A stretch of 45,266 nucleotides of DNA from a virus. Lineage: Duplodnaviria; Heunggongvirae; Uroviricota; Caudoviricetes. The notes beneath the pieces were generated by a model, which saw only the letters and a program-made list of their open reading frames with translations, was not told the origin of the DNA and ran no database searches. The position numbers and the translations under genes are program-made. The stretch lies in the IMG/VR virus record IMGVR_UViG_2531839130_000013; one strand, 5' to 3'. Numbering within the stretch: the stretch's first letter is position 1; each line of letters starts with the position of its first letter. Below, one piece after another: positions 1 to 15,509 of the stretch.

Positions 1-1119
1 TCAAATAACCAACTTAACCCATTCCTGACCTCGAGTATCGTTATAGCGATCGGTGGTTGCCTGGACTTTATGCCCTAGTAATGTTTTTGTATCGATACCC
101 TGTGCACGGTACAGCCGTTCTGATAGAGAGCGTTGTTCATGAAATGTTGGCGGAGTTTTTCCTGCTGGTGGAATTATCCCAGCCAGATCCCGTGCTTTGG
201 CAAAGTAGTCGCTCAGGTTGTCTTTACTCATCGGCTTCGGTTGTTTCTGGTGCCGACTATGGATTAGATATGGACTTAATATTCTGTCTCGGCACCCATC
301 AATAACTTCTTTTAACGTTATCCCAATGGCATCACAGCGTAGTGTAAGCGGTAACGCCAGACGCATTCCGGTTTTTCCCTGGGTGATATGCAAGTGTTCG
401 TTCCACACATCTGAAAAACGCATGTGGCAAATGTCATCACGGCGCTGACCAGTAACAATCGCAAGAAGCATTGCGTTACGGATAAAGTGTTTTTCAGGCG
501 TTGCATTGTAAATTTTTTGCCAGTCTTCCATGGTGAGCCTGGCTCTGGTTACTTTAGGGATCGGTTTACGGGTAGCCTCCGGAGGATTCCATCCAGGAGG
601 AACTTCCCCTGCATGCTGTGCTTCTTTATAAATATCAACCCATAATCCACGATTTACTCTCGCTGTGCTGACCATGTCTTTATCCAGCCACTCATCCAGT
701 ATTAATGCAAAGTCTCTTACTTCCAGTTCTTTCAATGGGTGGTTTCCCAGACGGGAAACCAGGTATGCAGCCATTCGAGTTTTTTCTTTGTGAGTTGTAG
801 CTGCAATATCTCCATTTTTCAGTCGCGCGTCCTGTATTTTCAGATATCGATCAACCCATGCCTTTAATCTGATGCCCCGACGTTTTGTTGCTGACGGACT
901 TTCATCAATTTTGCGCATGAAATATTCAGCTTCTGCTGCAGCTATTCGCTGATTGGCTGTGGAAGCGATTTTTTCTGCTTTGCCTTTGTCTGTTCCGAGA
1001 CCGTGAAATTTTCCAGTCACAGGGTTTTTATACTGGTAGTAAACCCTGCCAGTTCTGCGATCAAACTTTTCGTAAAGACCGGTTACGTCAGTGCTGTTTT
1101 TTCGTGGCCTCGGTGACAT
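1..1119 (-). CDS. int: Tyrosine-type site-specific integrase (lambda Int family)
   Basis: 372-aa ORF; the stop codon is the first three bases of the window (tca on +). C-terminal catalytic region with HxxR-type motif and C-terminal Tyr (TDRYNDTRG); 5' end overlaps the upstream xis-like ORF as in lambda. Confidence 0.9.
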   Translation of the reverse strand: MSPRPRKNSTDVTGLYEKFDRRTGRVYYQYKNPVTGKFHGLGTDKGKAEKIASTANQRIAAAEAEYFMRKIDESPSATKRRGIRLKAWVDRYLKIQDARLKNGDIAATTHKEKTRMAAYLVSRLGNHPLKELEVRDFALILDEWLDKDMVSTARVNRGLWVDIYKEAQHAGEVPPGWNPPEATRKPIPKVTRARLTMEDWQKIYNATPEKHFIRNAMLLAIVTGQRRDDICHMRFSDVWNEHLHITQGKTGMRLALPLTLRCDAIGITLKEVIDGCRDRILSPYLIHSRHQKQPKPMSKDNLSDYFAKARDLAGIIPPAGKTPPTFHEQRSLSERLYRAQGIDTKTLLGHKVQATTDRYNDTRGQEWVKLVI

Positions 1120-1366
1120 GAGTTAAAATCTCCTTCAGTGCATCATCATCGCCAGTATGAATTTCCGGCGCAATTCCCGTTTCACCAGGTCCAACAAATA
1201 CTGCCCGGCGATCTATCAGCCAACGCCCACGAATTTTTTGTGGTCTTGGAACGATGTATCCTAGTTTTCCGTATTTCACCAGGGTAGTGTTTGTTATTGG
1301 GAGACTGAACCGTTTTGGTTTCCACTCGTCGAGCGTTATCAGGTACTGTTCGCTCATGGCTATCAC
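1088..1366 (-). CDS. xis: Excisionase (Xis-like)
   Basis: Small basic ORF immediately upstream of int and overlapping its start; size and position fit an excisionase. Start codon uncertain (alternative Met at about 1357). Confidence 0.65.
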   Translation of the reverse strand: MIAMSEQYLITLDEWKPKRFSLPITNTTLVKYGKLGYIVPRPQKIRGRWLIDRRAVFVGPGETGIAPEIHTGDDDALKEILTHVTEATKKQH

Positions 1367-1418
1367 TCCGGAACGCGCCAGTTGCAGAATACCAACGACA
1401 ACTGGCGACGGTTGAACA

Positions 1419-3890
1419 TTAAAAATCAGCCTGACTCGGGATCAGTTTTTGCCAGATAGCTGAAACGTATTTTGCCTGGTAACGAGCGTCATCAAGTGCA
1501 TTATGGCGCTCACCTTCGAATGGGATAGCAGTTCTGGCATCGAAGTCTATGGCTTTCCCCAGCTCAACGATTGTGCGTACATCGCGATCGTTGTAGTAAC
1601 GCCACGGGCAGGGGATCCCCTGCCGCTCGTATGAACGGCGCAAAATAGTGTTGTCGAAGTTGGCTCCATTTCCCCAGACCTGAACAAAAAATTCACCGGA
1701 GTTTTCGTCGATAAATTCCCGCAATTGTAACAGTGCATCATCTAACGGGATTTCATCGGTCATAATGGCAGATTGCGCTTCGCGTGATTGTTTAAGCCAC
1801 CATTTAATGGTGTCCCGATCAATGACTCCGCCAGCAGTTTCCAGATCGATAGTCTTACTAAATTCCGGTCCCATATCTCCGGTTTGCGGATCGAAAAATA
1901 TTGCACCTATTGAGATAATCGGGGCATCGGGATTTTTTCCCATGGTTTCAAGGTCGATCATCAGATGAATCCCCGCTCTGCTGGTGGATGTGAGATTATG
2001 ATGACCGTTCGCCTTAATTAAGGGATCTGACGCCTCGCCAGTTTCACTATCGCTGGCATGATGCTGATTGCCGCCAGTGTTCTCCTTGTGCTGATGCGCA
2101 GTGCCTTCCATTTCCTCCGGATCATTTTCCTGAACTTCAGGCTGATTCTCTCCATCGAATATTTCCTGGTATGTTGCGTCACCCATCACCGCACCACAAT
2201 CAGGGCAGTTGCCGCCACCGCTCTGACCGCAGGCGGTGCAGATCTTTTCCGGTTCCTGTTGCACTACTGGTTCAGGTTGTTTCGTTTCTGGCTCGTTTTG
2301 TTGCGTATTTTGGCTGTTTTGTTCCGCTTTCTGGTCGTTCTGTTCCGTTTCTTGCTGGTTCTGGTTCGCAGAATCGCGGGTCTGGATCCCCTTAACCCAT
2401 TTCGGATCATTCGGGTCGCTAATCCCTTCAACAAATTCACCACGTGATACTGCAAGCAGTTCATCGGCGTCAGGCTGGCTGATATTGGCTGCCTGCATAA
2501 TTTTGTTTACTTCGTCAGCGGTAACTTTTACCGGTTCTGGCTGTGCGGTCGTGTCAGATGCACCAGTATTTTGTTGTGAACCTGAGTATGTACTGTTTTT
2601 GCGGGCGAAATATTCTTCTTTCGTGATTTCAGTAGCCCCGGCAGCCAGCGCCTTATCCAGACCAGAAAGTTTGTTTGCGCGACCGTATTTTTCGCCATCC
2701 TTGTCGGTGAAGAGGAAGTAGAACGGCCCCTCACGCTCTACAGATGGTTCGACTTCCACTTTGCATTCGGTTTTTTCGTTGTCCGGAATTGCCGTTTCCA
2801 CTGCATCAGTTTCTGGTACTGGCGACGAGAGAGTATCAGTTGCGCTCTGATTTGTTCCTTCATCTTCAAACACGCCCTTTGTAGTCAGGTATTCAGTAAT
2901 GTATTTGTTCAGTGCCACAGGATCTTTGTGAATGTCGATCGGACGTCCACGGACAAGGCCAAAAATAGTCTGGCGGTCGTAGCGAAGGGCATCAGGCTGT
3001 TTGCGCATCGATGCCGAGATACGCTTCCAGTCTTCGCGGTCGTTGTCGATAACTTCATTTTTTGCCCAGCGATGGATGCTGCCGTCAATGTTTCCGGCAT
3101 CCACATCACCAGGCCAGAGAGCGTAGGCCAGTTCGTCATCCAGTGTTTTCCATGTCTGCTTGTATTCGCGATGAATGACTGCAGTGACAGGGGAGATATT
3201 TTCTGCTGAGTTTTCAGTGTGCTGTCGGTTGACTCTGGCGCGGGCGAGATCAACAGCAGACGTGTATTTTCCGGTTTCCTTGCGTTCACCTTCGCGACGT
3301 TTTTTCCAGATGCGCATCTCTGCCTGAATTTCGGGCCATTTAGCTCCAGGCTTACATTTATGCTTAACCCACCCGATGGCATGCAACTTAAGTTCTGGAT
3401 ACATGGCGTTAACTTCTGGCATTTTCATCAACGCTTCAACGATATGTCCGTCGAATGTTGCCATGTCTTCCTGCAACAATTCCTGCGCGCTAATCACCAT
3501 ATCAACGGTGATGTTTTCACATGTGTCGAACTTAACCATGACAGCGTTCTGTACTTCAGGGGCCAGCTTGTCAAAAGTGACGTTCATCGGATCTGATTCA
3601 GTCTCAACCGGGACAAAGGAAGCAGACTCCTCATCCCAGCGGTTTTCCTGCATATATTCAGCATCCCAGGAATCGAGGGCAGGGCGGGGTATACCGGGTT
3701 TATCCTCGCAAACAAGAAATTTATAAGCGCAGTCCTGAGCAGCCGGATAATGCTCCAGGAATTGCCAGTGAAATTTTGCGCGGGCGCGACGTTCATCACC
3801 GGCTTCAATGGCAGTGGCTACAGCGACTGCACCTTCTTCCTTTATTGCCTGTTCGTCCGGAATGGCGGCGCAAATAAAGACTTTACTCAT
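1419..3890 (-). CDS. Large exonuclease-like protein with C-terminal DnaQ-like (DEDDh) 3'-5' exonuclease domain
   Basis: 823-aa ORF. C-terminal third has exonuclease motifs (IDLET..., HNALDDARY); central part is acidic and Q/N/E-rich with a Cys4 cluster (CTACGQSGGGNCPDCG). Sits where lambdoid recombination genes lie. Confidence 0.6.
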   Translation of the reverse strand: MSKVFICAAIPDEQAIKEEGAVAVATAIEAGDERRARAKFHWQFLEHYPAAQDCAYKFLVCEDKPGIPRPALDSWDAEYMQENRWDEESASFVPVETESDPMNVTFDKLAPEVQNAVMVKFDTCENITVDMVISAQELLQEDMATFDGHIVEALMKMPEVNAMYPELKLHAIGWVKHKCKPGAKWPEIQAEMRIWKKRREGERKETGKYTSAVDLARARVNRQHTENSAENISPVTAVIHREYKQTWKTLDDELAYALWPGDVDAGNIDGSIHRWAKNEVIDNDREDWKRISASMRKQPDALRYDRQTIFGLVRGRPIDIHKDPVALNKYITEYLTTKGVFEDEGTNQSATDTLSSPVPETDAVETAIPDNEKTECKVEVEPSVEREGPFYFLFTDKDGEKYGRANKLSGLDKALAAGATEITKEEYFARKNSTYSGSQQNTGASDTTAQPEPVKVTADEVNKIMQAANISQPDADELLAVSRGEFVEGISDPNDPKWVKGIQTRDSANQNQQETEQNDQKAEQNSQNTQQNEPETKQPEPVVQQEPEKICTACGQSGGGNCPDCGAVMGDATYQEIFDGENQPEVQENDPEEMEGTAHQHKENTGGNQHHASDSETGEASDPLIKANGHHNLTSTSRAGIHLMIDLETMGKNPDAPIISIGAIFFDPQTGDMGPEFSKTIDLETAGGVIDRDTIKWWLKQSREAQSAIMTDEIPLDDALLQLREFIDENSGEFFVQVWGNGANFDNTILRRSYERQGIPCPWRYYNDRDVRTIVELGKAIDFDARTAIPFEGERHNALDDARYQAKYVSAIWQKLIPSQADF

Positions 3891-3982
3891 TTTGTTTTAC
3901 CTCATTACAGATTTAAGGGTGAACAAATCCCTGCCATTGCTGGCATATAAGAATGAAAGCGGATGTTTATTACGGAACTGTT

Positions 3983-4174
3983 TTAAAGACCTGCCGGGAT
4001 TTCGTTATTATCCTGGTGAATAACTTTATCGACCGGGTAACAGTTACCGGGAATTTTCTGTTCGGTTGCTGCAGTCATACATTCCTGCATTGTCCTGTGA
4101 ACACTGACTGCAATATCAACTGGCTCTCCGGAAACAAGATAAACTGTCAGAACAAGCGCAAATGCTGAATTCAT
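3983..4174 (-). CDS. ydfD: Small membrane protein, YdfD-like (Qin prophage lysis protein family)
   Basis: 63-aa product MNSAFALVLTVYLVSGEPVD... with N-terminal hydrophobic segment; its ATG overlaps the dicB stop (ATGA). Start chosen at the internal Met of the 81-aa track ORF. Assignment from memory of Qin prophage synteny. Confidence 0.45.
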   Translation of the reverse strand: MNSAFALVLTVYLVSGEPVDIAVSVHRTMQECMTAATEQKIPGNCYPVDKVIHQDNNEIPAGL

Positions 4175-4359
4175 TGTGCACATCCTTTTGGCATCAGACG
4201 TAAACGAGCCAGCATTGAAACAATGCATATTTTATTTAATAGCTCCCCTTCTTGTTTTCTCTTGTTAATGGCATCTTCAGTAAATACTGAGTTACTGATA
4301 GTGACACCAATTTCAAAACAACCTTCAGACGTATTAACGTTTGGTAATAACGTTTCCAT
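4171..4359 (-). CDS. dicB: Cell-division inhibitor DicB-like protein (62 aa)
   Basis: Internal Met of the 97-aa track ORF gives METLLPNVNTSEGCFEIGVTISN...LMPKGCAQ, 62 aa, matching my recollection of DicB almost residue for residue; GAGGA Shine-Dalgarno about 9 nt upstream; directly downstream of the DicF sRNA as in Qin. Confidence 0.6.
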   Translation of the reverse strand: METLLPNVNTSEGCFEIGVTISNSVFTEDAINKRKQEGELLNKICIVSMLARLRLMPKGCAQ

Positions 4360-4528
4360 TATCGCGTCCTCAACAATGAATTTTGTGATGCGGTGCCTGG
4401 TGCCTCCAGGTGACGTTAACCAGTTAACAATTAACGCCGGATACAGAGAACCCACCCATAACACTGTTTTTGGTTTTAACTGTTCCGCGTGCGCTTAGCC
4501 GCATTCACCGCATCACAAAATTCACTTT

Positions 4529-4586
4529 AAAAAGGGCGGCAGAGCAGTCACGGAGTAAAACTGATACCGCTAAACGCCACCAGAAA
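4529..4586 (-). ncRNA. dicF: DicF small RNA (ftsZ-targeting sRNA of Qin-type prophages)
   Basis: Reverse complement of 4534-4586 reads tttctggtggcgtttagcggtatcagttttactccgtgactgctctgccgccc, near-identical to the 53-nt DicF sequence as I recall it, followed by a U-tract on the minus strand. A perfect 9-bp stem (4612-4620 / 4640-4648) lies just upstream in transcript order. Confidence 0.7.
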
Positions 4587-4920
4587 ATTGATAACAGAGG
4601 GCGTTGCAGCGGGGTTGTCACTTAAGCGTATGGTCAACCTGACAACCCGGTGTCCTCAACGGGGAAGGAATAACCCCGCCATACTTACCGCCGCGCCATT
4701 TCGCGGATTGCCACAACCGGAAGCGCACGGTCGACGAAAATTTAACGACAGGCTATCTATGAACCAGCAACCTCGCCGTGCGCTTTCGCGTTATGCTCTG
4801 ACTTTTCAGAGAAATATCCTTTCAGTAAACTGTCAGTACCGGATGCTCACCCGTGTCCGGCGCACGCACTCCACCTCACCCGTGGAGAACTCCTTAAGTA
4901 CCAACCCTCAGGATGGTGAA

Positions 4921-5142
4921 ATGACTAGTAAAAATGTAAATATCCAGTTTAACCACGATGTTTCTCCTGCCGGACTTGCGGATGAACTCACTGCTATAAA
5001 AACAGCAATTATGCTACTTGTTGCTAAGTTGCCAGCAGCATCACAACCATCAGATATTTGTGACTCATTACGTAAGATGAATTCAACAAAATGCAACGAG
5101 ATGGCATCACTTATTGAAATAGCTATTGATTTTAATGATTAA
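4921..5142 (+). CDS. Hypothetical small protein (74 aa), opposite in orientation to the left operon
   Basis: ATG at 4921 inside a longer track ORF, weak SD (GGATGG); protein-like composition; 3' end overlaps the convergent minus-strand gene by 11 nt. Could be a shadow ORF. Confidence 0.25.
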   Translation: MTSKNVNIQFNHDVSPAGLADELTAIKTAIMLLVAKLPAASQPSDICDSLRKMNSTKCNEMASLIEIAIDFND

Positions 5143-5506
5143 TCGAAATCTCATGGCTAACTGTAACACTCCCGTCTGTGGCGGGATGCTTTAAATCACA
5201 GGAGTTAACGCTTTTTGTTGCAAAGTAATTTTCAAGGGGGTCTATTCGAATCCCTTTCTTTTTCATTAACAAGCCAAACCCCTTATCAATGATGTCCATT
5301 AGATCCAGGAAGTATTTTTTATGTAAATCCTGGTTATCAGAGAGCTGCTTCTCTTCGTACAGACCGATAAAGGCACGACGCACGTTACCGGATATAGTAT
5401 AGATGGTTTCTTTTTCTACGGTACTCAGGTCAAGAGTCGCCAGTTGGGAACGAACTATATTCGCTGCCATTTCCTGGAATTGCATTGGTAAATCTTTAAA
5501 TTCCAT
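5132..5506 (-). CDS. Hypothetical protein (124 aa)
   Basis: Clean ORF tightly packed in the leftward early operon; no recognisable motif. Confidence 0.5.
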   Translation of the reverse strand: MEFKDLPMQFQEMAANIVRSQLATLDLSTVEKETIYTISGNVRRAFIGLYEEKQLSDNQDLHKKYFLDLMDIIDKGFGLLMKKKGIRIDPLENYFATKSVNSCDLKHPATDGSVTVSHEISINH

Positions 5507-5528
5507 TATTAGCCTCGTTGGTTAGCTA

Positions 5529-5747
5529 TTAACGTGGGTATGTAATCATTCTGGCAATGCTTAATGCCGCTGCTTTTTCCAGCCTGGTGATATCCTGCTC
5601 CAGAGCGGACAGATTTTCAGCCTGCTTAGCCCTGGCTTCATTGGCCCATTTCAGATCCTGCGCTGCATTAATTTTCTGGCGCATCCACTCATAAAGTTCA
5701 TCATCGGTATAGTCTTGTGCGATGATGACGGGTTCTCGTTTCTGCAT
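5529..5747 (-). CDS. Hypothetical protein (72 aa)
   Basis: ORF in the leftward operon, predicted coiled-coil-like composition. Confidence 0.45.
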   Translation of the reverse strand: MQKREPVIIAQDYTDDELYEWMRQKINAAQDLKWANEARAKQAENLSALEQDITRLEKAAALSIARMITYPR

Positions 5748-5775
5748 ACTGATTCCTCGCGGTGCTGTTTCGCTT

Positions 5776-5904
5776 ATCAGCCGTTAGATTTTGCGGAACT
5801 GGAAAGCGCCTGTTTAAATTCGTTGAAGCTGAGAGCTTCTTCGCCTTCGGCAAGACCTTCGAAGTATTCTTCGTAAGCCTTTTCCATGATTGTGTCGAAA
5901 TCCA
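5776..5904 (-). CDS. Hypothetical small acidic protein (42 aa)
   Basis: Hand-translated minus-strand ORF MDFDTIMEKAYEEYFEGLAEGEEALSFNEFKQALSSSAKSNG with SD-like GGTGAGTG upstream; fits the gap between neighbours. Below the size cut-off of the ORF track. Confidence 0.35.
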
Positions 5905-5906
5905 TA

Positions 5907-6143
5907 TCACTCACCTGAGTTTCTTTCCAGCCAGCGACGGGCACCATTTTCGGTTTTAAACGTTTTGCTTTTGGTATACGTCATCGCGGTGAACGTACCG
6001 TCCTGGTTGGGGAACACGCCACATACCAGAGATTCGCTGTTGCCAAGATCGATAGTATCCATGCTGACCTCATTTCCCCTTAACGCCGGGGTAGCGGAAC
6101 AAAAACCTGCTGCATAGTTATTAAAGTTGAACCCTGCCGTCAT
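5907..6143 (-). CDS. Hypothetical protein (78 aa), first gene of the leftward early operon
   Basis: ORF directly downstream of the candidate pL-type promoter; start may be at an internal Met. Confidence 0.45.
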   Translation of the reverse strand: MTAGFNFNNYAAGFCSATPALRGNEVSMDTIDLGNSESLVCGVFPNQDGTFTAMTYTKSKTFKTENGARRWLERNSGE

Positions 6144-6241
6144 GTTCTTACGCCTCGGGCTGGCTACTTAACCCCTGACCACTGCCTGGTAACTCGAAGT
6201 ATTGCCCTGCATTATGTGGGGCGGGGTGGGTTGATATTTTT

Positions 6242-6269
6242 AGTTTAATAAACATTAAACTTAAGTCAA
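6242..6269 (-). promoter_or_regulatory. Candidate leftward early promoter (pL-like): -35 TTGACT, 16-bp spacer, -10 TAAACT on the minus strand
   Basis: Minus-strand hexamers are identical to those of the candidate rightward promoter at 7257-7286; ACTAAAC-like operator motifs nearby (6254-6260, 6276-6282). Confidence 0.4.
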
Positions 6270-6353
6270 GTAAAAACTAAACCGCAGGGCGTAACAAACA
6301 CAACGCTTTTGATAAAGTCGTTGCGGTTGTTATGTTTCTATTGGTAGTGAAAG

Positions 6354-6632
6354 TTAGGGAAACTGGCGTCTTGCGTGGATCACGTTTACTACTTCAACGC
6401 TTGATGTTGTTACGCGGTATAGAATTATATAGTTAGGGTGGGCTACAATCTCACGCAAGCCAGGTACTCTGTCGCTTGGTGGGTATAAATACGGATGTTC
6501 GGATAACGGCAGCACACAACCCCTTAATCGCTGCCATAAGCGTTCAGCCGCATCTATGTCGAAACGAGCAATATAACTAGTTATATCATCTAGGTCGGTA
6601 TCTGCGCTTTCAAGCCATAACACGGGTAACAT
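6354..6632 (-). CDS. parE: ParE/RelE-family type II toxin (about 92 aa)
   Basis: C-terminal region REIVAHPNYIILYRV...VEVVNVIHARRQFP is typical of the ParE/RelE fold; start placed at internal Met (MLPVLWLE...) abutting the antitoxin stop. Sizes (92 aa toxin, 63 aa antitoxin, upstream repressor) match the three-component PaaR-PaaA-ParE prophage modules of E. coli O157 as I recall them. Confidence 0.75.
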   Translation of the reverse strand: MLPVLWLESADTDLDDITSYIARFDIDAAERLWQRLRGCVLPLSEHPYLYPPSDRVPGLREIVAHPNYIILYRVTTSSVEVVNVIHARRQFP

Positions 6633-6633
6633 T

Positions 6634-6825
6634 TTACTGCTTGCTCCGTTCCTTGCGCATTTTAGCAAAGCGTTCTGCCATTCTGCGCTCAACTTCGTCA
6701 TGGGGAATTGCTGGGCGTGGATCTGCAAGGCTCGTTGCTACTTTTGCACGCAGCCATTCGTTGTAACTGTTTTCTTGTTCAATGGTTTCAAATTCAGAAA
6801 CCATTGGTGAAAGGGCTCTATTCAT
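6634..6825 (-). CDS. Antitoxin partner of the ParE-like toxin (63 aa, PaaA-like)
   Basis: Start MNRALSPMVSEF... preceded by GGAGGA SD; small acidic/basic protein immediately upstream of the toxin with near-adjacent stop/start. Confidence 0.6.
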   Translation of the reverse strand: MNRALSPMVSEFETIEQENSYNEWLRAKVATSLADPRPAIPHDEVERRMAERFAKMRKERSKQ

Positions 6826-6845
6826 GTTTCCTCCGGTTTTATAAC

Positions 6846-7217
6846 TCAGGCGCGGCGGCATTTTTGCGCCGCAATCCATCTCGCTATGAGATCTTCCATT
6901 GATTCTTTTTTCTGCTTTAACTCGCTGATTATCTGGCGTTGCTCATCCTCAGGGAAGGCTGAAAAAATCTGCAATAATTCCAGTTGATTAGACGTTAACC
7001 CTGCATGTGGTGGAGAAACCTCCGGTTGTTCTGCGTATTCCGCATCCAGATACCCTTCCGGCATCCCGTATGTTTGCTCTATTCTTCTGGCAGCCTTTTC
7101 TCCAAACGAGGCTCTCCCACTCATTAGTTGAGATAGGTAGCTCTTCTCTTTGGGTGGCAGAGTTTTATCTTTAAACCACTCCTTGAGACGTAAACGGCGA
7201 ATTTCTTTTTTTTGCAT
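6846..7217 (-). CDS. Phage repressor-like HTH regulator (cI/DicA/PaaR-like), probably leaderless
   Basis: HTH-like segment KSYLSQLMSGRASFGEKAARRIEQTYGMPEGYLD; C-terminal LELLQIFSAFPEDEQ resembles the DicA C-terminus. Start set at MQKK (7217) because the longer 158-aa reading runs through the divergent promoter and the cro-like start; a GATAAT -10 sits 6 nt upstream of this ATG. Confidence 0.7.
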   Translation of the reverse strand: MQKKEIRRLRLKEWFKDKTLPPKEKSYLSQLMSGRASFGEKAARRIEQTYGMPEGYLDAEYAEQPEVSPPHAGLTSNQLELLQIFSAFPEDEQRQIISELKQKKESMEDLIARWIAAQKCRRA

Positions 7218-7223
7218 GTGGTA

Positions 7224-7305
7224 ATTATCTTTAGTAATCACTAAACAAGCAAATACTTGACTTAATGGTTTATTAAACACTAAACTCTCAAAAAAAACAC
7301 TAAAC
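7224..7305. promoter_or_regulatory. Divergent promoter/operator region: leftward pRM-like promoter, rightward pR-like promoter, three CACTAAAC repeats
   Basis: Leftward -10 GATAAT (7224-7229 on +) and -35 TTGCTT (7247-7252) with 17-bp spacer; rightward -35 TTGACT 7257-7262, 18-bp spacer, -10 TAAACT 7281-7286; direct repeats CACTAAAC at 7239-7246, 7278-7285, 7298-7305. Confidence 0.45.
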
Positions 7306-7315
7306 CGAGGAAGGT

Positions 7316-7618
7316 ATGACATTAAAAGAGTTTATTAAATCATTGAGGGTTGGTGATGCTAAGAAATTCGCAGCCAGACTTGGTGTATCGCCATCTTACT
7401 TATCGCAAATGGCGTCTGGACGAGCAGCTATATCTCCAACACGCGCCCTTATGATCGAATCTGCGACGGAAGGCCAAGTAAGTAGGGCGGAGCTACGACC
7501 CCATGATTGGGAGCTTATTTGGCCTGAGTATGCGAGCGGCATTCGTTTGGGGCAAACACATGTAGTTCATGCTGAAGGTGATTGTAGTGCATGCTTATCT
7601 GATGGAGTTGATTCATGA
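7316..7618 (+). CDS. Cro-like HTH protein (YdaS-like)
   Basis: 100-aa ORF divergent from the repressor, GAGGAAGG SD; HTH-like FAARLGVSPSYLSQMASGRAAISPTRAL; position equivalent to cro. Confidence 0.65.
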   Translation: MTLKEFIKSLRVGDAKKFAARLGVSPSYLSQMASGRAAISPTRALMIESATEGQVSRAELRPHDWELIWPEYASGIRLGQTHVVHAEGDCSACLSDGVDS

Positions 7619-8040
7619 AAATCAAGCATGAACACATCCGCATGGCGATGAATGCCTGGGCGCATCCGGACGGTGAAAAAGTTCCGGCTGCGAAAATTAC
7701 CAAAGCGTATTTCGAGCTGGGAATGACGTTCCCGGAACTGTATAACGACAGCCATCCGGAAGCCCTGGCTCGCAATACTCAGAAAATTTTCCGCTGGGTG
7801 GAGAAAGACACCCCTGATGCGGTTAAAAAAATTCAGGCGTTGTTACCAGCTATCGAAAAAGCAATGCCGCCTCTGCTGGTGGCCCGAATGCGCAGCCACA
7901 GTTCAGCCTGGTTTCGGGAGCTGGTGGAGACGCGGGAACGGCTGGTGAGAGACGCTGATGATTTTGTCGCAGTGGCGATCGCTGGTTTCAACCAGATGAA
8001 TCGTGGTGGCCCTGCAGGAAATATTGTGGCTGTGCATTGA
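7615..8040 (+). CDS. YdaT-like protein (cII-position regulator / putative toxin family)
   Basis: 141-aa ORF starting MKIKHEHI..., overlapping the stop of the Cro-like gene; synteny and N-terminus resemble Rac prophage YdaT as I recall it. Confidence 0.5.
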   Translation: MKIKHEHIRMAMNAWAHPDGEKVPAAKITKAYFELGMTFPELYNDSHPEALARNTQKIFRWVEKDTPDAVKKIQALLPAIEKAMPPLLVARMRSHSSAWFRELVETRERLVRDADDFVAVAIAGFNQMNRGGPAGNIVAVH

Positions 8041-8105
8041 CTCGCAATATTCATACCGGATCACTTCCGGCAATTTGTGAGTAAAAAGATTCGGTATCAA
8101 AAGAG

Positions 8106-9152
8106 GTGAGTATGGCTAACGCCTGGCTCAGATTATGGCATGACATGCCAAACGATCCTAAGTGGCGAACAATTTCCAGGTTGTCAGGACAGCCAATCGC
8201 AACAGTGATGGCTGTGTATATCCACCTTCTGGTGAGTGCGTCACGAAATGTCACGACATGTCACGGTGTGTCACTACGTGGTCACATTGATGTCACGGCG
8301 GAAGATTTAGCAAGTGCGCTTGATGTGACGGAAGAAGTAATTGATTCAATTTTACAGGCAATGCAGGGGCGGGTACTTGATGGAGATTTGATCAGTGGAT
8401 GGGAAAAACGCCAGGTACTGAAAGAGGACAATGGCAACGTTTCACAAACCGCGAAATCCCCGGCAGAGCGCAAGAGAGCGCAGCGCGAGAGGGAAAAATT
8501 ACGAAAACAGAATGAGGGGGCGCGCGACGAGTCACGCATCTGTCACGACATGTCACGACGAGTCACGACAGATAAAGATACAGATAAAGAATTAAACCCC
8601 ACACATAACGCGCGCGTGCGAGAGAGTGCTCCTGCCAGTGAGGCAAATGGCGTGCCGTTGCAAACAGCGGAACCTGATTACCTGGAAGGCCTGAGCGAAC
8701 CCATCGGGAAATTTCCGATGACCGATGGCTGGCATCCGTCGCCGGATTTTCGACGACGGGCTGCGCTGTGGGGCGTGGCTCTTCCTGAGCCGGAATTTAC
8801 ACCAGCTGAACTTTCCGCCTTCCGGGACTACTGGGCAGCGGAGGGCAAAGTGTTCACGCAGGTTCAGTGGGAGCAGAAATTCGCCCGTCACGTAAATCAC
8901 GTCAGGGCGCAGGCTAAACCAGTCAGCAAGGGGGTAAACCATGCAGCAGCACCAGGTGGCACCGCATCACGGGCAGTTCAGGAAATTCGGGCAGCACGTG
9001 AGCAGTGGGAACGTGAAAACGGATTTATCAGCGACGGAAACGGCCTGGAAGCTGTGGGAACTCATGGGGGAGGTTTATTCGAACCGCTGGACCCAGAAGA
9101 ACGGGGCCGCACCTTCGAAGCTCTGGATTGCACAGATTGGCGCGATGACTGA
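8106..9152 (+). CDS. Replication initiation protein (O-like; YdaU/DUF1376-type N-terminus)
   Basis: 348-aa ORF with N-terminal WLRLWHDMPNDPKWRTI motif; two clusters of TGTCACG iterons lie inside the coding sequence, as the lambda ori lies inside O; immediately followed by a P-like gene. Confidence 0.65.
   Translation: MSMANAWLRLWHDMPNDPKWRTISRLSGQPIATVMAVYIHLLVSASRNVTTCHGVSLRGHIDVTAEDLASALDVTEEVIDSILQAMQGRVLDGDLISGWEKRQVLKEDNGNVSQTAKSPAERKRAQREREKLRKQNEGARDESRICHDMSRRVTTDKDTDKELNPTHNARVRESAPASEANGVPLQTAEPDYLEGLSEPIGKFPMTDGWHPSPDFRRRAALWGVALPEPEFTPAELSAFRDYWAAEGKVFTQVQWEQKFARHVNHVRAQAKPVSKGVNHAAAPGGTASRAVQEIRAAREQWERENGFISDGNGLEAVGTHGGGLFEPLDPEERGRTFEALDCTDWRDD
8239..8298. repeat. Iteron cluster 1: about six copies of (T)GTCACG at roughly 10-bp spacing
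   Basis: gcgTCACGaaaTGTCACGacaTGTCACGgtgTGTCACtacgtgGTCACattgaTGTCACG read directly from the sequence. Confidence 0.6.
8527..8564. repeat. Iteron cluster 2: four copies of GTCACG(A) followed by an A/T-rich tract (8565-8595)
   Basis: GAGTCACGcatcTGTCACGacaTGTCACGacgaGTCACGacag then gataaagatacagataaagaattaaa; iterons plus AT-rich region are ori-like. Confidence 0.55.
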
Positions 9153-9606
9153 GCAGCAAATCCGACAGGTCTGCCGCCAGTGCATGGACCGCTGCCGGGC
9201 GGGTGAAACATGGCCTCCGGACCTGGCTGAGTTTGTGGCACTGATTTCGGAGAGTGGGGCAAATCCATTTGGTCTGACGGTGGATGCTGTGATGGAGGAG
9301 TACCGTCGCTGGCGCAATGAGTCCTGGCGATACGACGGAAGCGATAAATACCCATGGACTCAGCCTGTGCTGTATCACATTTGCCTCGAGATGCGTTCAA
9401 AGGGGATTGAGCGCCAGATGACCGAAGGGGAATTAAAACGGCTTGCAGAACGGCAGCTGACGAAATGGGCAAAGCATGTTAGTAACGGCCTGAGCGTTCC
9501 GCCAGTCCGGCGACAACTGGCGGCACCCAAACGCCCGTCGGGACCAACGCCAATTGAGTTACTGAAACAGGAATATGAACGCCGGAAAGCGGCTGGGTTT
9601 GTTTGA
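8941..9606 (+). CDS. Replication protein P-like helicase loader
   Basis: C-terminal two-thirds align by eye with lambda P ([14 protein letters not shown] / [27 protein letters not shown]...[11 protein letters not shown] / YPWKSNAHYWLVTNLY...AELRRKAADEL). 5' end overlaps the initiator gene; true start may be the Met at 9064. Confidence 0.6.
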
Positions 9607-9640
9607 GTTGAGAAGTAATTTTTACCGGGAGGAAATTTTA

Positions 9641-10402
9641 ATGGAGACCGTTTTTGACGCACTGAAAGCGATGGGAAAAGCTACGTCGGTAGAACTGGCT
9701 GAGCGACTTGATATCAGTCGTGAAGAAGTGCTGAACGAACTATGGGAACTGAAAAAGGCTGGTTTCGTTGATAAAAGCGCGTACACCTGGCGTGTGGCTG
9801 ATAACAACGTTCAGCAGGAACAGCCAGCGCCAGAAGAACAGCCGGAAGAAACCTCCACGGCGACAGTAGCGAAAATCTCAGAGTGCGATTTAACCGCGAC
9901 GATTGAACAACGCGGACCACAAACGGCTGATGAGCTGGCTACATTGTTTGGTACCACATCACGCAAAGTGGCTTCAACGCTGGCAATGGCAATCAGCAAA
10001 GGCCGTCTGATTCGTGCTAATCAGGACGGTAAATTTCGTTACTGTATGCCGGGCGATAATTTACCAGCAGAGCCGAAAGCAGCATCGGTAGCGGAAACTG
10101 ATGGTAAAGCCTTTCCTCAGCCTGCATGCGTTGCGTTACCAGTACAGGAAGCTGCAACACAGGAAGATATTAAAACAGAGACTGTGGCGGACATTGTGCA
10201 GTCGCTGCCATCGTTTACTGAAACGCGAGCGGATGACCTGGTTTTACCATCGCTGCATATGGCAAACCGCGAACTGCGTCGGGCGAAAAATCATGTCCAG
10301 AAGTGGGAGCGAGTCTGCGCCGCGCTGCGGGAGCTGAACAAGCACCGGGATATTGTACGACAGATTACTGATTCTTCCCGCCATGTTGCATCGGAAAAGT
10401 GA
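9641..10402 (+). CDS. Hypothetical protein with N-terminal winged-helix-like segment (253 aa)
   Basis: Start [12 protein letters not shown]... with GGGAGG SD; N-terminal [28 protein letters not shown] looks like a wHTH; acidic/Q-rich linker. Confidence 0.5.
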
Positions 10403-10834
10403 TTGCCGGAGGCACCTGTGGCAAAAGTATTTACACCAGAAGAGCGGGAAAAAATTAAAGGGCAGGTTATTGAACTCGTGCGCCAGAGTGGGCGCGAGAC
10501 GTTACGGCAACTGGAAGCTAAAACAGGGGCGACAAGATACCTGATGAGCGTTCTCGCCAGAGAGCTGGTTGCCAGTGGTGATGTATACAACTCTGGCTAC
10601 GGGTTATTCCCGTCTGAACAGGCTCGTAAGGACTGGATAAAGGCCCGCAAAAAGATGTCGAAAGCAGCAGTGAAAAAAAAGAGCGACCCGGACTTGGTTT
10701 ATTCATTACCAGACGGAGAAATACGTCGTTACAACAGACGACAGAACATAATCTGTCGCGAGTGCCGGAAGAGTGAGGTTATGCAGCGAGTGCTGGCGTT
10801 TTATCAGGGGAATTTTGAGGAGGAGGTACTGTGA
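10403..10834 (+). CDS. Hypothetical protein (143 aa)
   Basis: ORF abutting the previous stop; contains a CxxC pair near the C-terminus (CRECRKSE); no family recognised. Confidence 0.4.
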   Translation: MPEAPVAKVFTPEEREKIKGQVIELVRQSGRETLRQLEAKTGATRYLMSVLARELVASGDVYNSGYGLFPSEQARKDWIKARKKMSKAAVKKKSDPDLVYSLPDGEIRRYNRRQNIICRECRKSEVMQRVLAFYQGNFEEEVL

Positions 10835-10891
10835 GTGAAATTAGCTATCAGTCTTCAATTACCGCTGGCATTCGCATCAAAGGAGAGGAGC

Positions 10892-11251
10892 ATGGAAATA
10901 AAACCAGAAGATGAGTTAAGTAATATTGTTTTATTTCCGGTAAAAGAGGATGACCCACGTAATCAGGTTAATTTTCTTTATGAGCCATCGGAAAGACCAT
11001 GCTGCCATCACGCTTCTGTCCGGGTTGACGAAAAAGAGCGTCAGGTCCGCTGTAAAATCTGCGGTGCAGTTGTGGAGCCATTTGACTGGATGCTCTCTGT
11101 GGCGAAAAGAGAAACCAGACTGGCAGATGGTGTAAAACAATTGCGTCAGGAGGAACGGGAAAGACGGAAAAATATAGAAAAGTTAATTCAGATTGAGCGT
11201 AACGCGAAAGCGCGGATACGCAGGGCGAAAAAAACAGAACTGAATAATTAA
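10892..11251 (+). CDS. Hypothetical zinc-ribbon protein (119 aa)
   Basis: Start MEIKPEDE with strong AAAGGAGAGGAG SD; Cys/His cluster CCHH...C.IC suggests a zinc ribbon; basic C-terminal tail. Confidence 0.5.
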   Translation: MEIKPEDELSNIVLFPVKEDDPRNQVNFLYEPSERPCCHHASVRVDEKERQVRCKICGAVVEPFDWMLSVAKRETRLADGVKQLRQEERERRKNIEKLIQIERNAKARIRRAKKTELNN

Positions 11252-11395
11252 ATTTAGCACTGTAAATAATTTTAATCCTTAACCTGAGGGATTTCTGCAC
11301 CCTCAGAACATCAGTAGGCCGCCCGAAAGGGCGGGAAGCAGTCACACATTTGTTTCCGATAGTCCCGTTCTAATGCTAGACTATTTGATATTTTC

Positions 11396-12082
11396 ATGAC
11401 CACAATAAATACGTTTATGACAGTTGCTGATTTCAAACGGCCTAAATTGGAGCTCCCAAACGGGGCAAACAAACTACTACTGCACTCTTGCTGTGCTCCA
11501 TGTTCCGGTGAAGTGATGGAGGCGCTTCAGGCCTCGGGAATCGACTACACCATCTTTTTCTACAACCCGAACATTCATCCTCAGAAAGAGTATTTAATTC
11601 GTAAGGATGAGAATATTCGCTTTGCTGAACAACACGGCGTGCAGTTTATCGATGCTGATTACGACACAGACAACTGGTTTGAACGTGCCAAAGGAATGGA
11701 ATGGGAGCCCGAGAGGGGGATCCGTTGTACCATGTGTTTTGACATGCGTTTTGAGCGGACAGCGTTGTACGCTGCTGAAAATGGTTTCAGTGTGATCAGC
11801 AGTTCGCTGGGCATTTCACGCTGGAAAAATATGCAGCAGGTTAACGACTGTGGGCGGCGAGCCGTCGCGCATTATCCGGGAATGGTGTACTGGGATTATA
11901 ACTGGCGCAAGCAGGGCGGCTCGTCCCGTATGATTGAAATCAGCAAGCGCGAAAAATTCTATCAGCAGGAATATTGTGGCTGTGTGTATTCTCTGCGCGA
12001 TACCAATCTACACCGCAAATCTCAGGGACGCCCTCTTATCAAAATTGGTCAACTCCACTACGGTAAAGAAGAGAAGGAGTGA
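11396..12082 (+). CDS. queH: QueH-like protein (DUF208, epoxyqueuosine reductase family)
   Basis: N-terminal [11 protein letters not shown] motif plus downstream conserved Cys (CTMCFD, YCGCV) match the signature of QueH/DUF208 as I recall it; stand-alone gene between replication genes and the hok locus. Confidence 0.6.
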
Positions 12083-12262
12083 TTTTATGGATCACCTTTC
12101 TGATTGATTTCATATTGGCGAGGTAGCAGGAGTTAAGTAGAATTGCTGCGGGTGCTTGAGGCTATCTGTCTCAGGCATGAACACCAAAAGGCAGATAGAG
12201 AAAAGCCCCAGTTAACATTACGCGTCCTGCAAGACGCTTAACATTAATCTGAGGCCATATCT

Positions 12263-12322
12263 ATGCGACACATAGAGATTAGCCTCTTACGGACCGAAAG
12301 GTCAAGGAGAAGCGGGCTATGA
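12263..12322 (+). CDS. Short leader ORF (19 codons) whose stop overlaps the hok ATG (mok-like coupling ORF)
   Basis: atgcgacacatagag... ends in TGA overlapping the hok ATG (cTATGAag); the leader region is rich in inverted repeats typical of hok mRNAs. Confidence 0.3.
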   Translation: MRHIEISLLRTERSRRSGL

Positions 12323-12474
12323 AGCAGCGAAAGGCGATGTTAATCGCCCTGATCGTCATCTGTTTAACCGTCATAGTGACGGCACTGGTAACGAGGAAAG
12401 ACCTCTGCGAGGTACGAATCCGAACCGGCCAGACGGAGGTCGCTGTCTTCACAGCTTACGAACCTGAGGAGTAA
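12319..12474 (+). CDS. hok: Hok/Gef-family type I toxin (51 aa), HokD/RelF-like
   Basis: Hand-translated: MKQRKAMLIALIVICLTVIVTALVTRKDLCEVRIRTGQTEVAVFTAYEPEE, essentially the Hok/RelF sequence; AAGGAGAAG SD upstream; below the size threshold of the ORF track. Confidence 0.85.
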   Translation: MKQRKAMLIALIVICLTVIVTALVTRKDLCEVRIRTGQTEVAVFTAYEPEE

Positions 12475-12544
12475 GAGACCTGGCGGGGGAGAAATCCCTC
12501 GCCACCTCTGATGTGTCAGGCATCCTCAATGCACCCGCACTTAA

Positions 12545-12569
12545 CCCGCTTCGGCGGGTTTTGTTTTTT
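12545..12569 (+). terminator. Intrinsic terminator downstream of hok
   Basis: cccgc-ttcg-gcggg stem-loop followed by an 11-nt T-rich run. Confidence 0.6.
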
Positions 12570-12641
12570 CTGAGCATCCTGGTTTACAATCCACATGCCA
12601 GCCTGAACAACTGGCACCTGCTGCGCCAGCAGAGAAAACAG

Positions 12642-12914
12642 ATGGCGCACAAGACCAAATTACACAATTCTGATACCGTTCGTGCCAGCAGGCACGGGCG
12701 GTGTTCGCACGCATTCAAATATGACTGGTATCAGCACGACCCCTGCACTGAAGAACAGGCCGAATGGCTGATTCATAACTACCGCAGACGTGGGTATGAG
12801 TTTAGGAAAGCCCTCAGCCTCGATTATCGTCACTGGATAATCTACGTCAGACTCCCTTATTCCGAACGCCCACCGCGTCCGTCCCGCACATTCCAGCAAC
12901 GCATCTGGAGGTAA
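12642..12914 (+). CDS. Hypothetical protein (90 aa), in the position of Qin rem
   Basis: Start set at MAHKTKLHN because the longer reading runs through the hok terminator; Cys/His-containing small protein; named by synteny only. Confidence 0.4.
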   Translation: MAHKTKLHNSDTVRASRHGRCSHAFKYDWYQHDPCTEEQAEWLIHNYRRRGYEFRKALSLDYRHWIIYVRLPYSERPPRPSRTFQQRIWR

Positions 12915-12915
12915 C

Positions 12916-13965
12916 GTGCGGGTATTACTTCGACCTGTTCTGGTGCCGGAACTTGGGGTGGTTATCGTTAAGCCAGGTCGTGAATCCATGCAGGTATTCC
13001 ATAACGGCAGAGTGCTGGTTGAACCGGAGCCAAAAAGCATGCGCGGTCTGCCGTCCGGGGTCGTTCCTGCCGTTCGCCAGCCGCTGGCGGAAGACAAATC
13101 TCTGCTGCCATTTTTCAGCGATGAGCGGGTGATTCGTGCTGCCGGCGGCGCTGGTGCACTGTCTGACTGGCTCCTGCGTCATGTTAAATCCTGCCAGTGG
13201 CCTCATGGTGACTACCATCACAGTGAAACCGTCATACATCGTTACGGTACCGGCGCGATGGTGCTGTGCTGGCACTGCGACAACCAGCTGCGTGACCAGA
13301 CATCCGAATCACTCGGGCAACTTGCTCATCAAAACCTGTCAGCATGGATGATTGACGTCATACGCCATGCAGTGAATGGCACGCAGGAGCGGGAATTATC
13401 GCTGGCTGAATTATCCTGGTGGGCGGTCCGCAATCAGGTGGCGGACGCGCTTCCGGAGGCAGTATTACGTCGTTCTCTGGGGTTACGTGCGGAAAAAATC
13501 CGCTCTGTGTACCGTGAAAGCGACATCATACCGGGAGAGCAGACAGCCACCAGCATACTGAAGCAGCGCACAAAAAATATTGTGCTACCGCCTCACGCCC
13601 ACCAGCAACAGAACCCACCACAGGAAAAGACGGTGGTCAGCATTGCCGTTGATCCGGAGTCTCCTGAATCTTTCATGAAGCGACCTAAACGTCGCCGCTG
13701 GGTTAACGAAAAGTACACGCGCTGGGTTAAGACACAGCCGTGTGCATGTTGTGGTAAGCCAGCCGACGATCCCCATCACCTGATTGGTCACGGTCAGGGA
13801 GGGATGGGGACAAAAGCCCACGATATTTTCACGCTACCGCTGTGCCGGGAGCATCACAATGAACTTCATGCTGATCCGCTGGCATTTGAAGAAAAGCATG
13901 GTTCCCAGATTGATTTAATTTTTCGTTTTCTTGATCACGCCTTTGCAACCGGCGTGCTCGGGTAA
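12916..13965 (+). CDS. DUF968-family protein with C-terminal HNH-like Cys/His motif (YdfU-like)
   Basis: GTG start with GGAGG SD; C-terminus CACCGKPADDPHHLIGHGQGGMGTKAHDIFTLPLCREHHNELH is HNH-like; 349 aa like Qin YdfU. Confidence 0.55.
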   Translation: MRVLLRPVLVPELGVVIVKPGRESMQVFHNGRVLVEPEPKSMRGLPSGVVPAVRQPLAEDKSLLPFFSDERVIRAAGGAGALSDWLLRHVKSCQWPHGDYHHSETVIHRYGTGAMVLCWHCDNQLRDQTSESLGQLAHQNLSAWMIDVIRHAVNGTQERELSLAELSWWAVRNQVADALPEAVLRRSLGLRAEKIRSVYRESDIIPGEQTATSILKQRTKNIVLPPHAHQQQNPPQEKTVVSIAVDPESPESFMKRPKRRRWVNEKYTRWVKTQPCACCGKPADDPHHLIGHGQGGMGTKAHDIFTLPLCREHHNELHADPLAFEEKHGSQIDLIFRFLDHAFATGVLG

Positions 13966-13977
13966 AAGAGGTTACTG

Positions 13978-14349
13978 ATGCGTATAGAGTTTGTTTTGCC
14001 TTACCCGCCAACGGTGAACACCTACTGGCGACGTCGTGGCAGTACATATTTTGTATCAAAAGCCGGTGAGCGTTATCGCCGTGATGTGGCGCTCATTGTT
14101 CGCCAGCAGCGACTGAAATTAAATCTGTCCGGAAGGCTGGCGATCAGGATTATTGTGGAGCCACCGGATAAGCGCCGTCGTGACCTGGACAATATCCTGA
14201 AAGCGCCACTGGATGCACTGACACATGCGGGACTGCTTATCGACGACGAGCAGTTTGATGAAATTAATATTGTGCGCAGTCAGCTTGTACCTGGTGGTCG
14301 GCTGGGCGTGAAGATTTACGAAATTACAGGTGGTAACGATGGCACGTGA
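13978..14349 (+). CDS. rusA: Holliday junction resolvase RusA
   Basis: Translation aligns with E. coli RusA including DRRRRDLDN...DALT catalytic region; typical nin-region position upstream of Q. Confidence 0.8.
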
Positions 14350-14704
14350 TATTCAGATGGTTCTTGAGCGTTGGGGAGCGTGGGTGGCAAATAATCATGA
14401 GGATGTCACATGGCCATCGATTGCTGCTGGCTTTAAAGGATTAATACCGTCGAAAGTTAAATCGCGTCCGCAATGTTCCGACGATGACGCAATGATCATT
14501 TGTGGCTGTATGGCCCGGTTGAATAAGAACAACAAAGAATTACACGATTTGCTGGTAGATTATTACGTGGCGGGCATGACGTTTATGGCGCTAGCACGAA
14601 AGCATGGTCGTTCGGATTGCTGGGTTGGCCGTTTGTTGCAAAAGGCTGAAGGGATAGTTGACGGCATGTTGATGATGCTTGATATCAAGCTGGACATGGA
14701 CTGA
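14330..14704 (+). CDS. Late-gene antiterminator Q-like protein (about 120 aa, QuuD-type)
   Basis: Position immediately after rusA and before the lysis-side cargo; size matches short Q-family antiterminators; Cys-containing IICGCMARL segment. Start probably MARDIQ at 14339. Confidence 0.5.
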
Positions 14705-14720
14705 TAAAACTTAACTCACA

Positions 14721-14744
14721 TACCCTCTCCATGCGGAGAGGGTA
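14721..14744. terminator. Bidirectional hairpin between Q and the convergent lipoprotein gene
   Basis: Perfect 10-bp inverted repeat taccctctcc-atgc-ggagagggta between two convergent stop codons. Confidence 0.5.
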
Positions 14745-14748
14745 TGAA

Positions 14749-15228: not shown

Positions 15229-15304
15229 ATGGGCCTGCTTGTGAATTATCGTACAAGAAAAGTTCGACTAAATTTTATCGTAAAAAGACATCGCCGAACA
15301 GATG

Positions 15305-15332
15305 TTTACAATCGTAAAAAATCAAATATGCT
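15305..15332 (+). promoter_or_regulatory. Candidate sigma-70 promoter (TTTACA, 16-bp spacer, TATGCT), possible late pR'-type promoter
   Basis: Hexamers read from sequence, positioned about 35 nt upstream of an intrinsic terminator and upstream of the plus-strand cargo and lysis genes. Confidence 0.3.
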
Positions 15333-15366
15333 GTTAAGAGTGGTTACTTCGCCACACAGCTTAAAC

Positions 15367-15386
15367 CCGCCGCCAGGCGGTTTTTT
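15367..15386 (+). terminator. Intrinsic terminator (candidate tR'-like)
   Basis: ccgcc-gcca-ggcgg hairpin followed by TTTTTT. Confidence 0.45.
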
Positions 15387-15509
15387 GTGTCCGAAAAACG
15401 GCGCAGTACGTTAAACGTGCTGGTGGTTGCGAATACCGGTCTTTCAGCTTGCTGGCTTTTTCGACAAGAGTTATTGGTATGTCACGTTAACCAGAAAAGG
15501 GAAAAAGAC

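Follow-up and report, generated by a model that had tools for sequence, protein, structure and literature searches.

Does a prophage exonuclease with no recognisable single-strand annealing partner belong to a concealed two-component recombinase, or does it act in another way? The question is raised by an 823-amino-acid (aa) protein encoded in the early-left operon of a 45,266-nucleotide (nt) Caudoviricetes prophage sequence, IMG/VR record IMGVR_UViG_2531839130_000013, which is referred to as the window. An original prediction, made from the letters alone, proposed that the partner was one of several small unassigned proteins or that the exonuclease had a different role. The analysis favours, with a probability of about 0.55, a recombination- or DNA-end-associated 3′–5′ exonuclease that is delivered by a scaffold, trims 3′ single-stranded ends or flaps and works without an annealase. 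By sequence comparison, the protein, a modular early-left product of lambdoid (Qin/mEp460-type) prophages, is a mosaic in which the linker of RecE is kept and the RecE 5′–3′ PD-(D/E)XK nuclease is replaced by a DEDDh domain.

The C-terminal domain matches PF16473, the DexA/Rv2179c-like family (Table 1), with 226 bits against a cut-off of 27 and covers profile positions 2–177 of 177. Catalytic residues D646, E648, D746, H796 and D801 align with D7, E9, D119, H186 and D191 of T2/T4 DexA. This DEDDh pentad (ExoI D-x-E, ExoII D, ExoIII H-x4-D) is invariant across T2 DexA and the homologues of Yersinia phage YeP2 and phage Enc34. The catalytic residues of DexA were taken from PMC12153337, which prints "E12" for the ExoI glutamate where the alignment gives E9. 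The sole PDB match by sequence was T4 exonuclease A, DexA (8kel). A possible internal start codon, M644 (1959–1961), has GGGG nine bases upstream and would give a putative stand-alone DEDDh protein of ~180 aa, equal in length to the free-standing phage homologues.

The segment before the nuclease is RecE sequence. BLASTP aligned aa 474–624, which hold linker and all four cysteines of the Cys4 cluster, with aa 471–614 of Rac-SA53 RecE at 71% identity. At the DNA level, identity to recE is 83.5% over query nt 605–1020, and the similarity ends at ~codon 622. The NCBIfam RecE equivalog NF007259 scored 269.6 bits against a cut-off of 1269, with aa 244–626 aligned to model positions 269–603 of 877. 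BLASTP against Rac-SA53 RecE found no similarity in the C-terminal nuclease region, and the DEDDh domain occupies that position. The linker (aa 474–640) is 40% Q/N/E/D with an isoelectric point of 4.3, and aa 500–546 are 60% Q/N/E/D. At the Cys cluster, the Pfam double-zinc-ribbon match was weak (E = 0.13). The gene has the same early-left position near xis-int as Rac-type recE, the linker with its CxxC-x7-CxxC motif is shared, and weaker homology extends back to aa ~244. In contrast to RecE, the window protein ends in a DEDDh (3′–5′) rather than a PD-(D/E)XK (5′–3′) nuclease and has no relationship to Rac RecE over its first ~240 aa; its gene is not followed by recT.

The original prediction had described an 823-aa DEDDh exonuclease containing both a Cys4 cluster and a central region that is acidic and rich in Q/N/E, and the open reading frame (ORF), the PF16473 match, C551/554/562/565 and the composition bear this out. 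Its DnaQ-like DEDDh assignment also stands, with all five catalytic residues present, but the domain makes up the C-terminal ~22% of the protein and not a third. Loss of the catalytic DEDD residues, which it had named as a possible objection, was not observed in the alignment with DexA. It overlooked the RecE origin of the Cys cluster and linker, and that the gene is among the commonest Escherichia coli prophage genes.

The N-terminal scaffold was modelled with AlphaFold2 (AF2) from a 34-sequence alignment at a predicted local distance difference test score (pLDDT) of 81. The model has four confident folded units, with disorder predicted at aa 222–235, 345–384 and 438–460. BLASTP gave a faint match of aa 262–336 to RecE 295–368 (25% identity). 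The small domain at aa 388–432 is kept across the scaffold family, in the N-terminal segments of relatives. No recognisable fold match was found for the N-terminal model, and it contains no annealase fold; the Rad52/Sak beta-beta-beta-alpha fold was looked for in the 823-aa protein and not found. The ratio of nonsynonymous to synonymous substitution rates (dN/dS), calculated against four relatives, is 0.22–0.25 for the whole gene. By region it is 0.05–0.11 in the DEDDh domain, 0.08–0.12 in the first 230 aa, 0.25–0.30 at aa 231–450 and 0.36–1.15 in the linker. These ratios indicate that purifying selection keeps both protein ends and that the linker varies almost freely. Basic RecET recombination can proceed without the N-terminal region of RecE, which nevertheless enhances linear-linear recombination (PMC11611040).

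PHROG 2082 matches the 823-aa protein end to end (1851 bits). Proteins 90–95% identical top the database search, are named "exonuclease" or "3′-5′ exoribonuclease (domain-containing protein)" and carry PF27430, PF16473 and PF27432. In newer Pfam releases the N-terminal parts of the window protein are PF27430 (YdfE_N) and PF27432 (YdfE_C). A nucleotide search at ≥80% coverage found the gene in 3534 of 5426 complete E. coli genomes, at ≤10 places per genome. It is also present in plaque-forming or sequenced phages, including mEp460, Tritos, HannyBb, Evi, PhiR42_1 and the PPompW prophages of enterohaemorrhagic E. coli (EHEC). In K-12, the Qin gene ydfE is a copy cut short by IS2; the window ORF is its full-length homologue. 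Records LR597641.1, OV696610.1, PV340562.1, ON470583.1 and others use the labels "exodeoxyribonuclease VIII" or "exonuclease VIII, ds DNA exonuclease". The exodeoxyribonuclease VIII label is misleading by domain content, as the RecE nuclease domain is missing from the 823-aa protein, and it appears to derive from the shared RecE-like linker. No functional studies of ydfE, or of Rv2179c-type proteins in phage, were found in the literature.

The Pfam and PHROG search for partner genes was confined to non-structural ORFs of at least ~55 aa: the sizeable ones from xis to the repressor, the plus-strand ORF 4588–5142, and those of the early-right and nin regions as far as the lysis genes. From xis to the repressor, the ORFs encode Xis, YdfD, DicB, a 124-aa protein (5132–5506), YdfC/YdfB/YdfA-type proteins of 56–78 aa, a ParE/PaaA2 pair and the repressor. 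No annealase family (Bet/RecT, Erf, Rad52/Sak or Sak4) and no single-stranded DNA-binding protein (SSB) was detected in early-left, early-right and nin ORFs of at least ~55 aa. No anti-RecBCD gene (Gam, Abc2) was matched in the scanned ORFs, with very small ORFs not all covered. No recT lies beside the exonuclease; xis and int come next, likewise in mEp460, 689R5, STEC388 and L010. mEp460, Tritos and HannyBb, whose genomes are complete, have no annotated annealase either. Apart from the exonuclease, the only recombination-related products identified in the prophage are the RusA resolvase and a DUF968/HNHc-like protein (Table 1).

These scans agree with the original prediction that no Bet/RecT/Erf or Gam gene lies between xis and dicB, where ydfD is the sole gene between the exonuclease and dicB, and the sequence profiles identified no RecT/Bet/Erf-like neighbour. 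The exonuclease is, as predicted, the only recombination-type gene of the early-left operon, RusA being encoded in the nin region. The suggested partner among the unassigned small proteins is unlikely, since these are YdfA/YdfB/YdfC-type proteins of 56–124 aa, below any known annealase core. The premise that such an exonuclease needs an annealase is inapplicable, as a DEDDh enzyme is 3′–5′ and does not carry out lambda-Exo/RecE-type 5′–3′ resection. The 823-aa exonuclease would need no dedicated annealase because its polarity is opposite to that of lambda Exo and RecE, and its "orphan" status would therefore be expected. Unlike a two-component Red/RecET recombinase, the window has no detected annealase and its nuclease is not of the 5′–3′ type.

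The window is rich in Chi. The octamer (GCTGGTGG) occurs 12 times against 2.15 expected (~5.6-fold), and none of 100 dinucleotide-preserving shuffles reached 12. All 12 sites lie within 164–18370, from int to the lysis genes, and none in the ~27-kb structural half; the chance of this under a uniform fall is ~2e-5. Eight of the 12 are on the plus strand, the orientation read by RecBCD entering at the right-hand cos end. Relatives have 7–11 Chi sites each. One site of the window falls within the exonuclease gene (Table 1), and a same-strand Chi recurs at a corresponding position in the exonuclease genes of mEp460, Tritos and HannyBb. It is a conjecture that this Chi may have promoted the domain swap that made the mosaic. 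Chi count was also tried as a separator of DEDDh from RecET carriers and failed, as Rac-SA53 carries RecET and has 8 sites. High Chi numbers seem to accompany the lack of an annotated anti-RecBCD gene and not a particular nuclease type.

A class that makes up about 22% of lambdoid phages is without any Rec module and is Chi-rich instead; RecBCD enhances the growth of its type phage, LLS (PMC12315714). The prophage fits this class because no annealase or anti-RecBCD gene was detected and Chi is over-represented, and it probably recombines via the host RecBCD-Chi system. It shares with LLS the over-representation of Chi, the concentration of the sites towards the right of the virion map, their mostly single orientation, and the absence of a detected annealase, SSB or anti-RecBCD gene. 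Its Chi density of 1 per 3.8 kb is lower than the 1 per 1.86 kb of LLS, and the class is read here from sequence. DnaQ-type nuclease genes are found sporadically next to int in Chi-rich phages without a Rec module (PMC12315714).

Relatives of the scaffold carry different C-terminal cargoes. An exhaustive HMMER search with aa 1–640 recovered only 245 clusters (50% identity) among 1.84 billion proteins, and the family is therefore narrow. The window type joins the YdfE scaffold, the linker and the DEDDh domain. Protein P0128 joins a RecE N terminus and linker to a DEDDh domain 99% identical to that of the window. P0130, P0196 and P0233 combine the window's scaffold with the RecE nuclease, and P0129 and 13 others combine it with a third C terminus that has no Pfam match. 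This third cargo is predicted to be a Rad52-like annealase; its remaining matches were to helical repeats, at its C-terminal coiled helices. One genomic context was examined for each of three types (P0130, P0128 and P0129). Downstream of P0130, the next gene encodes a homologue of RecT that shares 39% identity with the Rac protein. P0128 has no recT beside it, and xis-int come straight after it. P0129 has a weak Gam match directly upstream and a Sipho_Gp157-family gene downstream. By domain assignment, the cargo is a resection nuclease, an annealase or a 3′–5′ nuclease, all of them DNA-recombination effectors.

The P0129-type proteins are probably, by our own inference, the "RecE-2" of Zheng et al., which are RecE-related, have no nuclease domain and are of unknown role (PMC12315714). 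In RecE-2 (PHROG 2489), the YdfE_N/YdfE_C scaffold is 25–45% identical to that of the window protein, but its C terminus is a predicted Rad52-like annealase where that of the window protein is an exonuclease.

The nuclease domain also occurs without the scaffold. Salmonella phage epsilon34 gp34 (L016:26842-27390) has 182 aa and is 57% identical to the DEDDh domain of the window (E = 3e-72). It is placed between the SSB and Abc2 genes, beside an Erf-like annealase, and the epsilon34 DnaQ nuclease has been called a "very likely legitimate" member of the Rec module (PMC12315714). Both genes are in an early-left operon and the identity spans the whole domain, but gp34 has no scaffold, whereas the window protein is fused to one of 640 aa and lies beside xis-int without an annealase, SSB or anti-RecBCD gene. 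In YeP2, a 56%-identical stand-alone DEDDh copy is just upstream of xis-int.

The favoured role, that of a scaffold-delivered 3′–5′ exonuclease, draws on RecE homology confined to aa 244–626, the intact catalytic pentad, the folded N-terminal domains of the AF2 model and the Rec-module membership of the nuclease family in epsilon34. It also draws on the exchange of cargo among relatives, on purifying selection and retention in active phages, and on the presence of RusA and many Chi sites where the scans detected no annealase or Gam. The scaffold would bring the DEDDh nuclease to its site of action, where the nuclease would trim 3′ single-stranded ends or flaps. The phage would rely on host RecBCD and RecA, together with its own RusA resolvase, for recombination-dependent growth. 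RecBCD loading needs blunt or nearly blunt ends. More speculatively, removal of 3′ tails would produce blunt ends, allow RecBCD to load and so feed the Chi pathway. A wider proposal is doubtful: the YdfE/RecE scaffold would be a general delivery platform whose effectors are swapped by linker recombination, and the DEDDh version would provide an annealase-independent route, clearing 3′ tails from phage DNA ends so that host RecBCD could load and travel to Chi, as the phage-encoded part of a Chi-rich strategy.

Several points weigh against the favoured role. The DNA or RNA substrate and the polarity are assigned from family membership only, and the founding family member, Rv2179c, is an exoribonuclease. 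DnaQ-type genes beside int have not been counted as Rec-module genes, and 3′–5′ exonucleases usually inhibit recombination (PMC12315714). Delivery by the scaffold is a conjecture, as the scaffold has no recognisable fold match, and end-blunting for RecBCD is more speculative. Chi enrichment is not confined to DEDDh carriers, as Rac-SA53, with RecET and no annotated Gam-type gene, has 8 sites.

A prophage defence nuclease of the HREX/EcD kind is plausible for the family but unlikely here. In this reading the DEDDh domain would degrade the 5-hydroxymethylcytosine (5hmC) DNA of superinfecting T-even phages and protect the lysogen. The only solved relative of the domain is T4 DexA, and EcD, an E. 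coli DexA homologue, cuts 5hmC DNA, not unmodified DNA, and protects against T4 (PMC12153337). Of the bacteria that carry DexA homologues, 38% are Escherichia, more than any other genus (PMC12153337); many of the homologues in E. coli probably belong to the prophage family described here, given its frequency in complete genomes. However, the gene is distal in a repressed early-left operon and has no sigma-70-like site upstream, so it is expected to be silent in a lysogen. The promoter and terminator scan found no such site on the gene's strand in the 92-nt upstream gap; the regional count of 11 against 9.3 expected is background, and the test is a weak one. DexA and EcD share the Pfam family and catalytic pentad of the window domain, but the proposed tetramerisation and 5hmC-recognition residues are not in the EcD pattern. 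DexA D90, the tetramer contact, corresponds to D718 (retained here, Ala in EcD), S87 to P715 and W152, of the 5hmC-recognition type, to Y765; D169, of the same type as W152, aligns with A780, where the alignment is gapped and the position uncertain. DexA itself is ~25–28% identical, has surface loops that are absent in the window protein, and is a stand-alone protein of ~200 aa rather than a fusion. EcD (HAK9828821.1) was related to the window family only through the residue numbering in PMC12153337, and that numbering (A78 for DexA D90) indicates a short stand-alone protein and not an 823-aa fusion. The RecE-scaffold fusion and the Rec-module membership of the epsilon34 nuclease point to recombination instead.

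It is also improbable that the protein is an RNA exonuclease acting on host or phage RNAs, or on defence nucleotide second messengers, in early lytic growth. The Pfam family is named for the Mycobacterium tuberculosis exoribonuclease Rv2179c, the Prokaryotic Genome Annotation Pipeline uses the name "3′-5′ exoribonuclease", and the operon also encodes the DicF small RNA (sRNA). Weak matches to RNase_T (E = 4e-4, in the same domain search) and to the PADLOC model of CRISPR-associated DEDDh (E = 1.7e-5) are in line with this activity. Against it, DexA, the nearest viral relative with a characterised activity, acts on DNA (PMC12153337), and the nearest stand-alone homologue (57% identical) belongs to a DNA recombination module. 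The other cargoes of the scaffold are a DNA nuclease and a predicted single-stranded DNA annealase. No defence or anti-defence family was supported, PADLOC giving no support for a known defence system and only the weak generic DEDDh match.

A cryptic annealing partner is very improbable. In this case a small early-left protein, or part of the 823-aa protein itself, would be an unrecognised annealase and complete a two-component recombinase. The N-terminal 460 aa and the 124-aa protein have no assigned function, and sister proteins fuse the same scaffold to a predicted Rad52-like annealase. Yet the small ORFs are YdfA/B/C-type with no annealase profile match, an annealase requires 3′ tails, which a 3′–5′ nuclease does not produce, and mEp460, Tritos and HannyBb are likewise without an annotated annealase. 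That the gene is a decaying or selfish mosaic without current function, a recE that lost its nuclease through illegitimate recombination, is highly unlikely: the mosaic history is clear, K-12 ydfE is cut by IS2 and the linker evolves almost neutrally, but the ORF is intact in thousands of genomes and in plaque-forming phages, the DEDDh and N-terminal domains are under strong purifying selection, and the pentad is intact, the opposite of the frequent frameshifts or catalytic-site changes across copies that would favour this reading.

The local order DicF–dicB–ydfD–exonuclease–xis–int recurs with different integrases, and the gene order is shared with mEp460, vB_EcoS-689R5, STEC388 and Tritos. 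Directly upstream of the exonuclease, DicF, DicB and YdfD make up a cell-division-inhibition cassette of the Qin type. A ParE-family toxin and PaaA2-type antitoxin pair is encoded on the minus strand (6354–6879), in the interval that separates the repressor from the early-left genes. On the plus strand, the early-right and late-regulatory region encodes a homologue of QueH, epoxyqueuosine reductase (11396–12082), a hok/sok-type locus (12150–12321; sok RNA, 105 bits), a DNA methyltransferase (15858–16907) and two tRNA genes (16957–17203).

Table 1. Positions in the window of the exonuclease gene, its parts, neighbouring genes and Chi sites.
Feature	Position	Strand	Remarks
Integrase	1–1119		Next after excisionase
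Excisionase	1088–1366	minus	Immediately downstream of exonuclease; Pfam Exc, PHROG 629
Exonuclease, complete 823-aa ORF	1419–3890	minus	ATG start; uninterrupted
DEDDh 3′–5′ exonuclease domain, aa 642–813	1452–1967	minus	PF16473, DexA/Rv2179c-like; Pfam E = 3.5e-67
Chi octamer GCTGGTGG within the exonuclease gene	1980–1987	plus	Codons 635–637, boundary of RecE-like linker and DEDDh domain
RecE-derived segment, aa 474–624	2019–2471	minus	Acidic Q/N/E-rich linker including Cys4 cluster; BLASTP, nucleotide identity
Cys4 cluster, C551-x2-C554-x7-C562-x2-C565	2196–2240	minus	Zinc-ribbon-like
Beta-hairpin and helix domain, aa 388–432	2595–2729	minus	Motif GPFYF...GRANK; AF2 pLDDT >90
Second helical domain, aa 245–340	2871–3158	minus	AF2; distant kinship to RecE N-terminal region
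N-terminal folded region, aa 1–225	3216–3890	minus	Part of YdfE_N; alpha/beta at aa 1–100, then helical at aa 105–225
ydfD (DUF1482)	3983–4228	minus	Last 63 codons of the ORF match the family; Pfam and PHROG
dicB	4171–4359	minus	62 aa from internal ATG of 97-aa ORF 4171–4464; Pfam and PHROG
DicF sRNA	4534–4585	minus	Rfam, 68.6 bits
DUF968/HNHc-like protein	12916–13965	plus	Next to RusA
RusA Holliday-junction resolvase	13978–14349	plus	nin region, just upstream of Q
Chi sites	164, 1980, 7875, 7920, 15419, 15735, 17902, 18013	plus	
Chi sites	13547, 13599, 16550, 18363	minus	

The gene, its domains and the many lambdoid phages without a Rec module are already described or annotated, and the finding is real but ordinary. 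The explicit three-way swap of cargo on the YdfE/RecE scaffold may be new, as may the predicted Rad52-like fold of the "nuclease-less" relatives. The gene is present in about two thirds of complete E. coli genomes, often in multiple copies and including EHEC prophages, and is often mis-annotated as exonuclease VIII; it should not count as evidence of a RecET-like recombineering module. The N-terminal region of RecE, unexplained since the discovery of RecE, would be a portable scaffold, which offers a way to study its function, and the family suggests that the nuclease-less RecE-2 proteins are annealase fusions. The DEDDh protein is a candidate accessory factor for the RecBCD/Chi-dependent lambdoid lifestyle. 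If the wider delivery-platform proposal were true, this protein would supply the phage-encoded component that had seemed to be missing from "no Rec module" phages.

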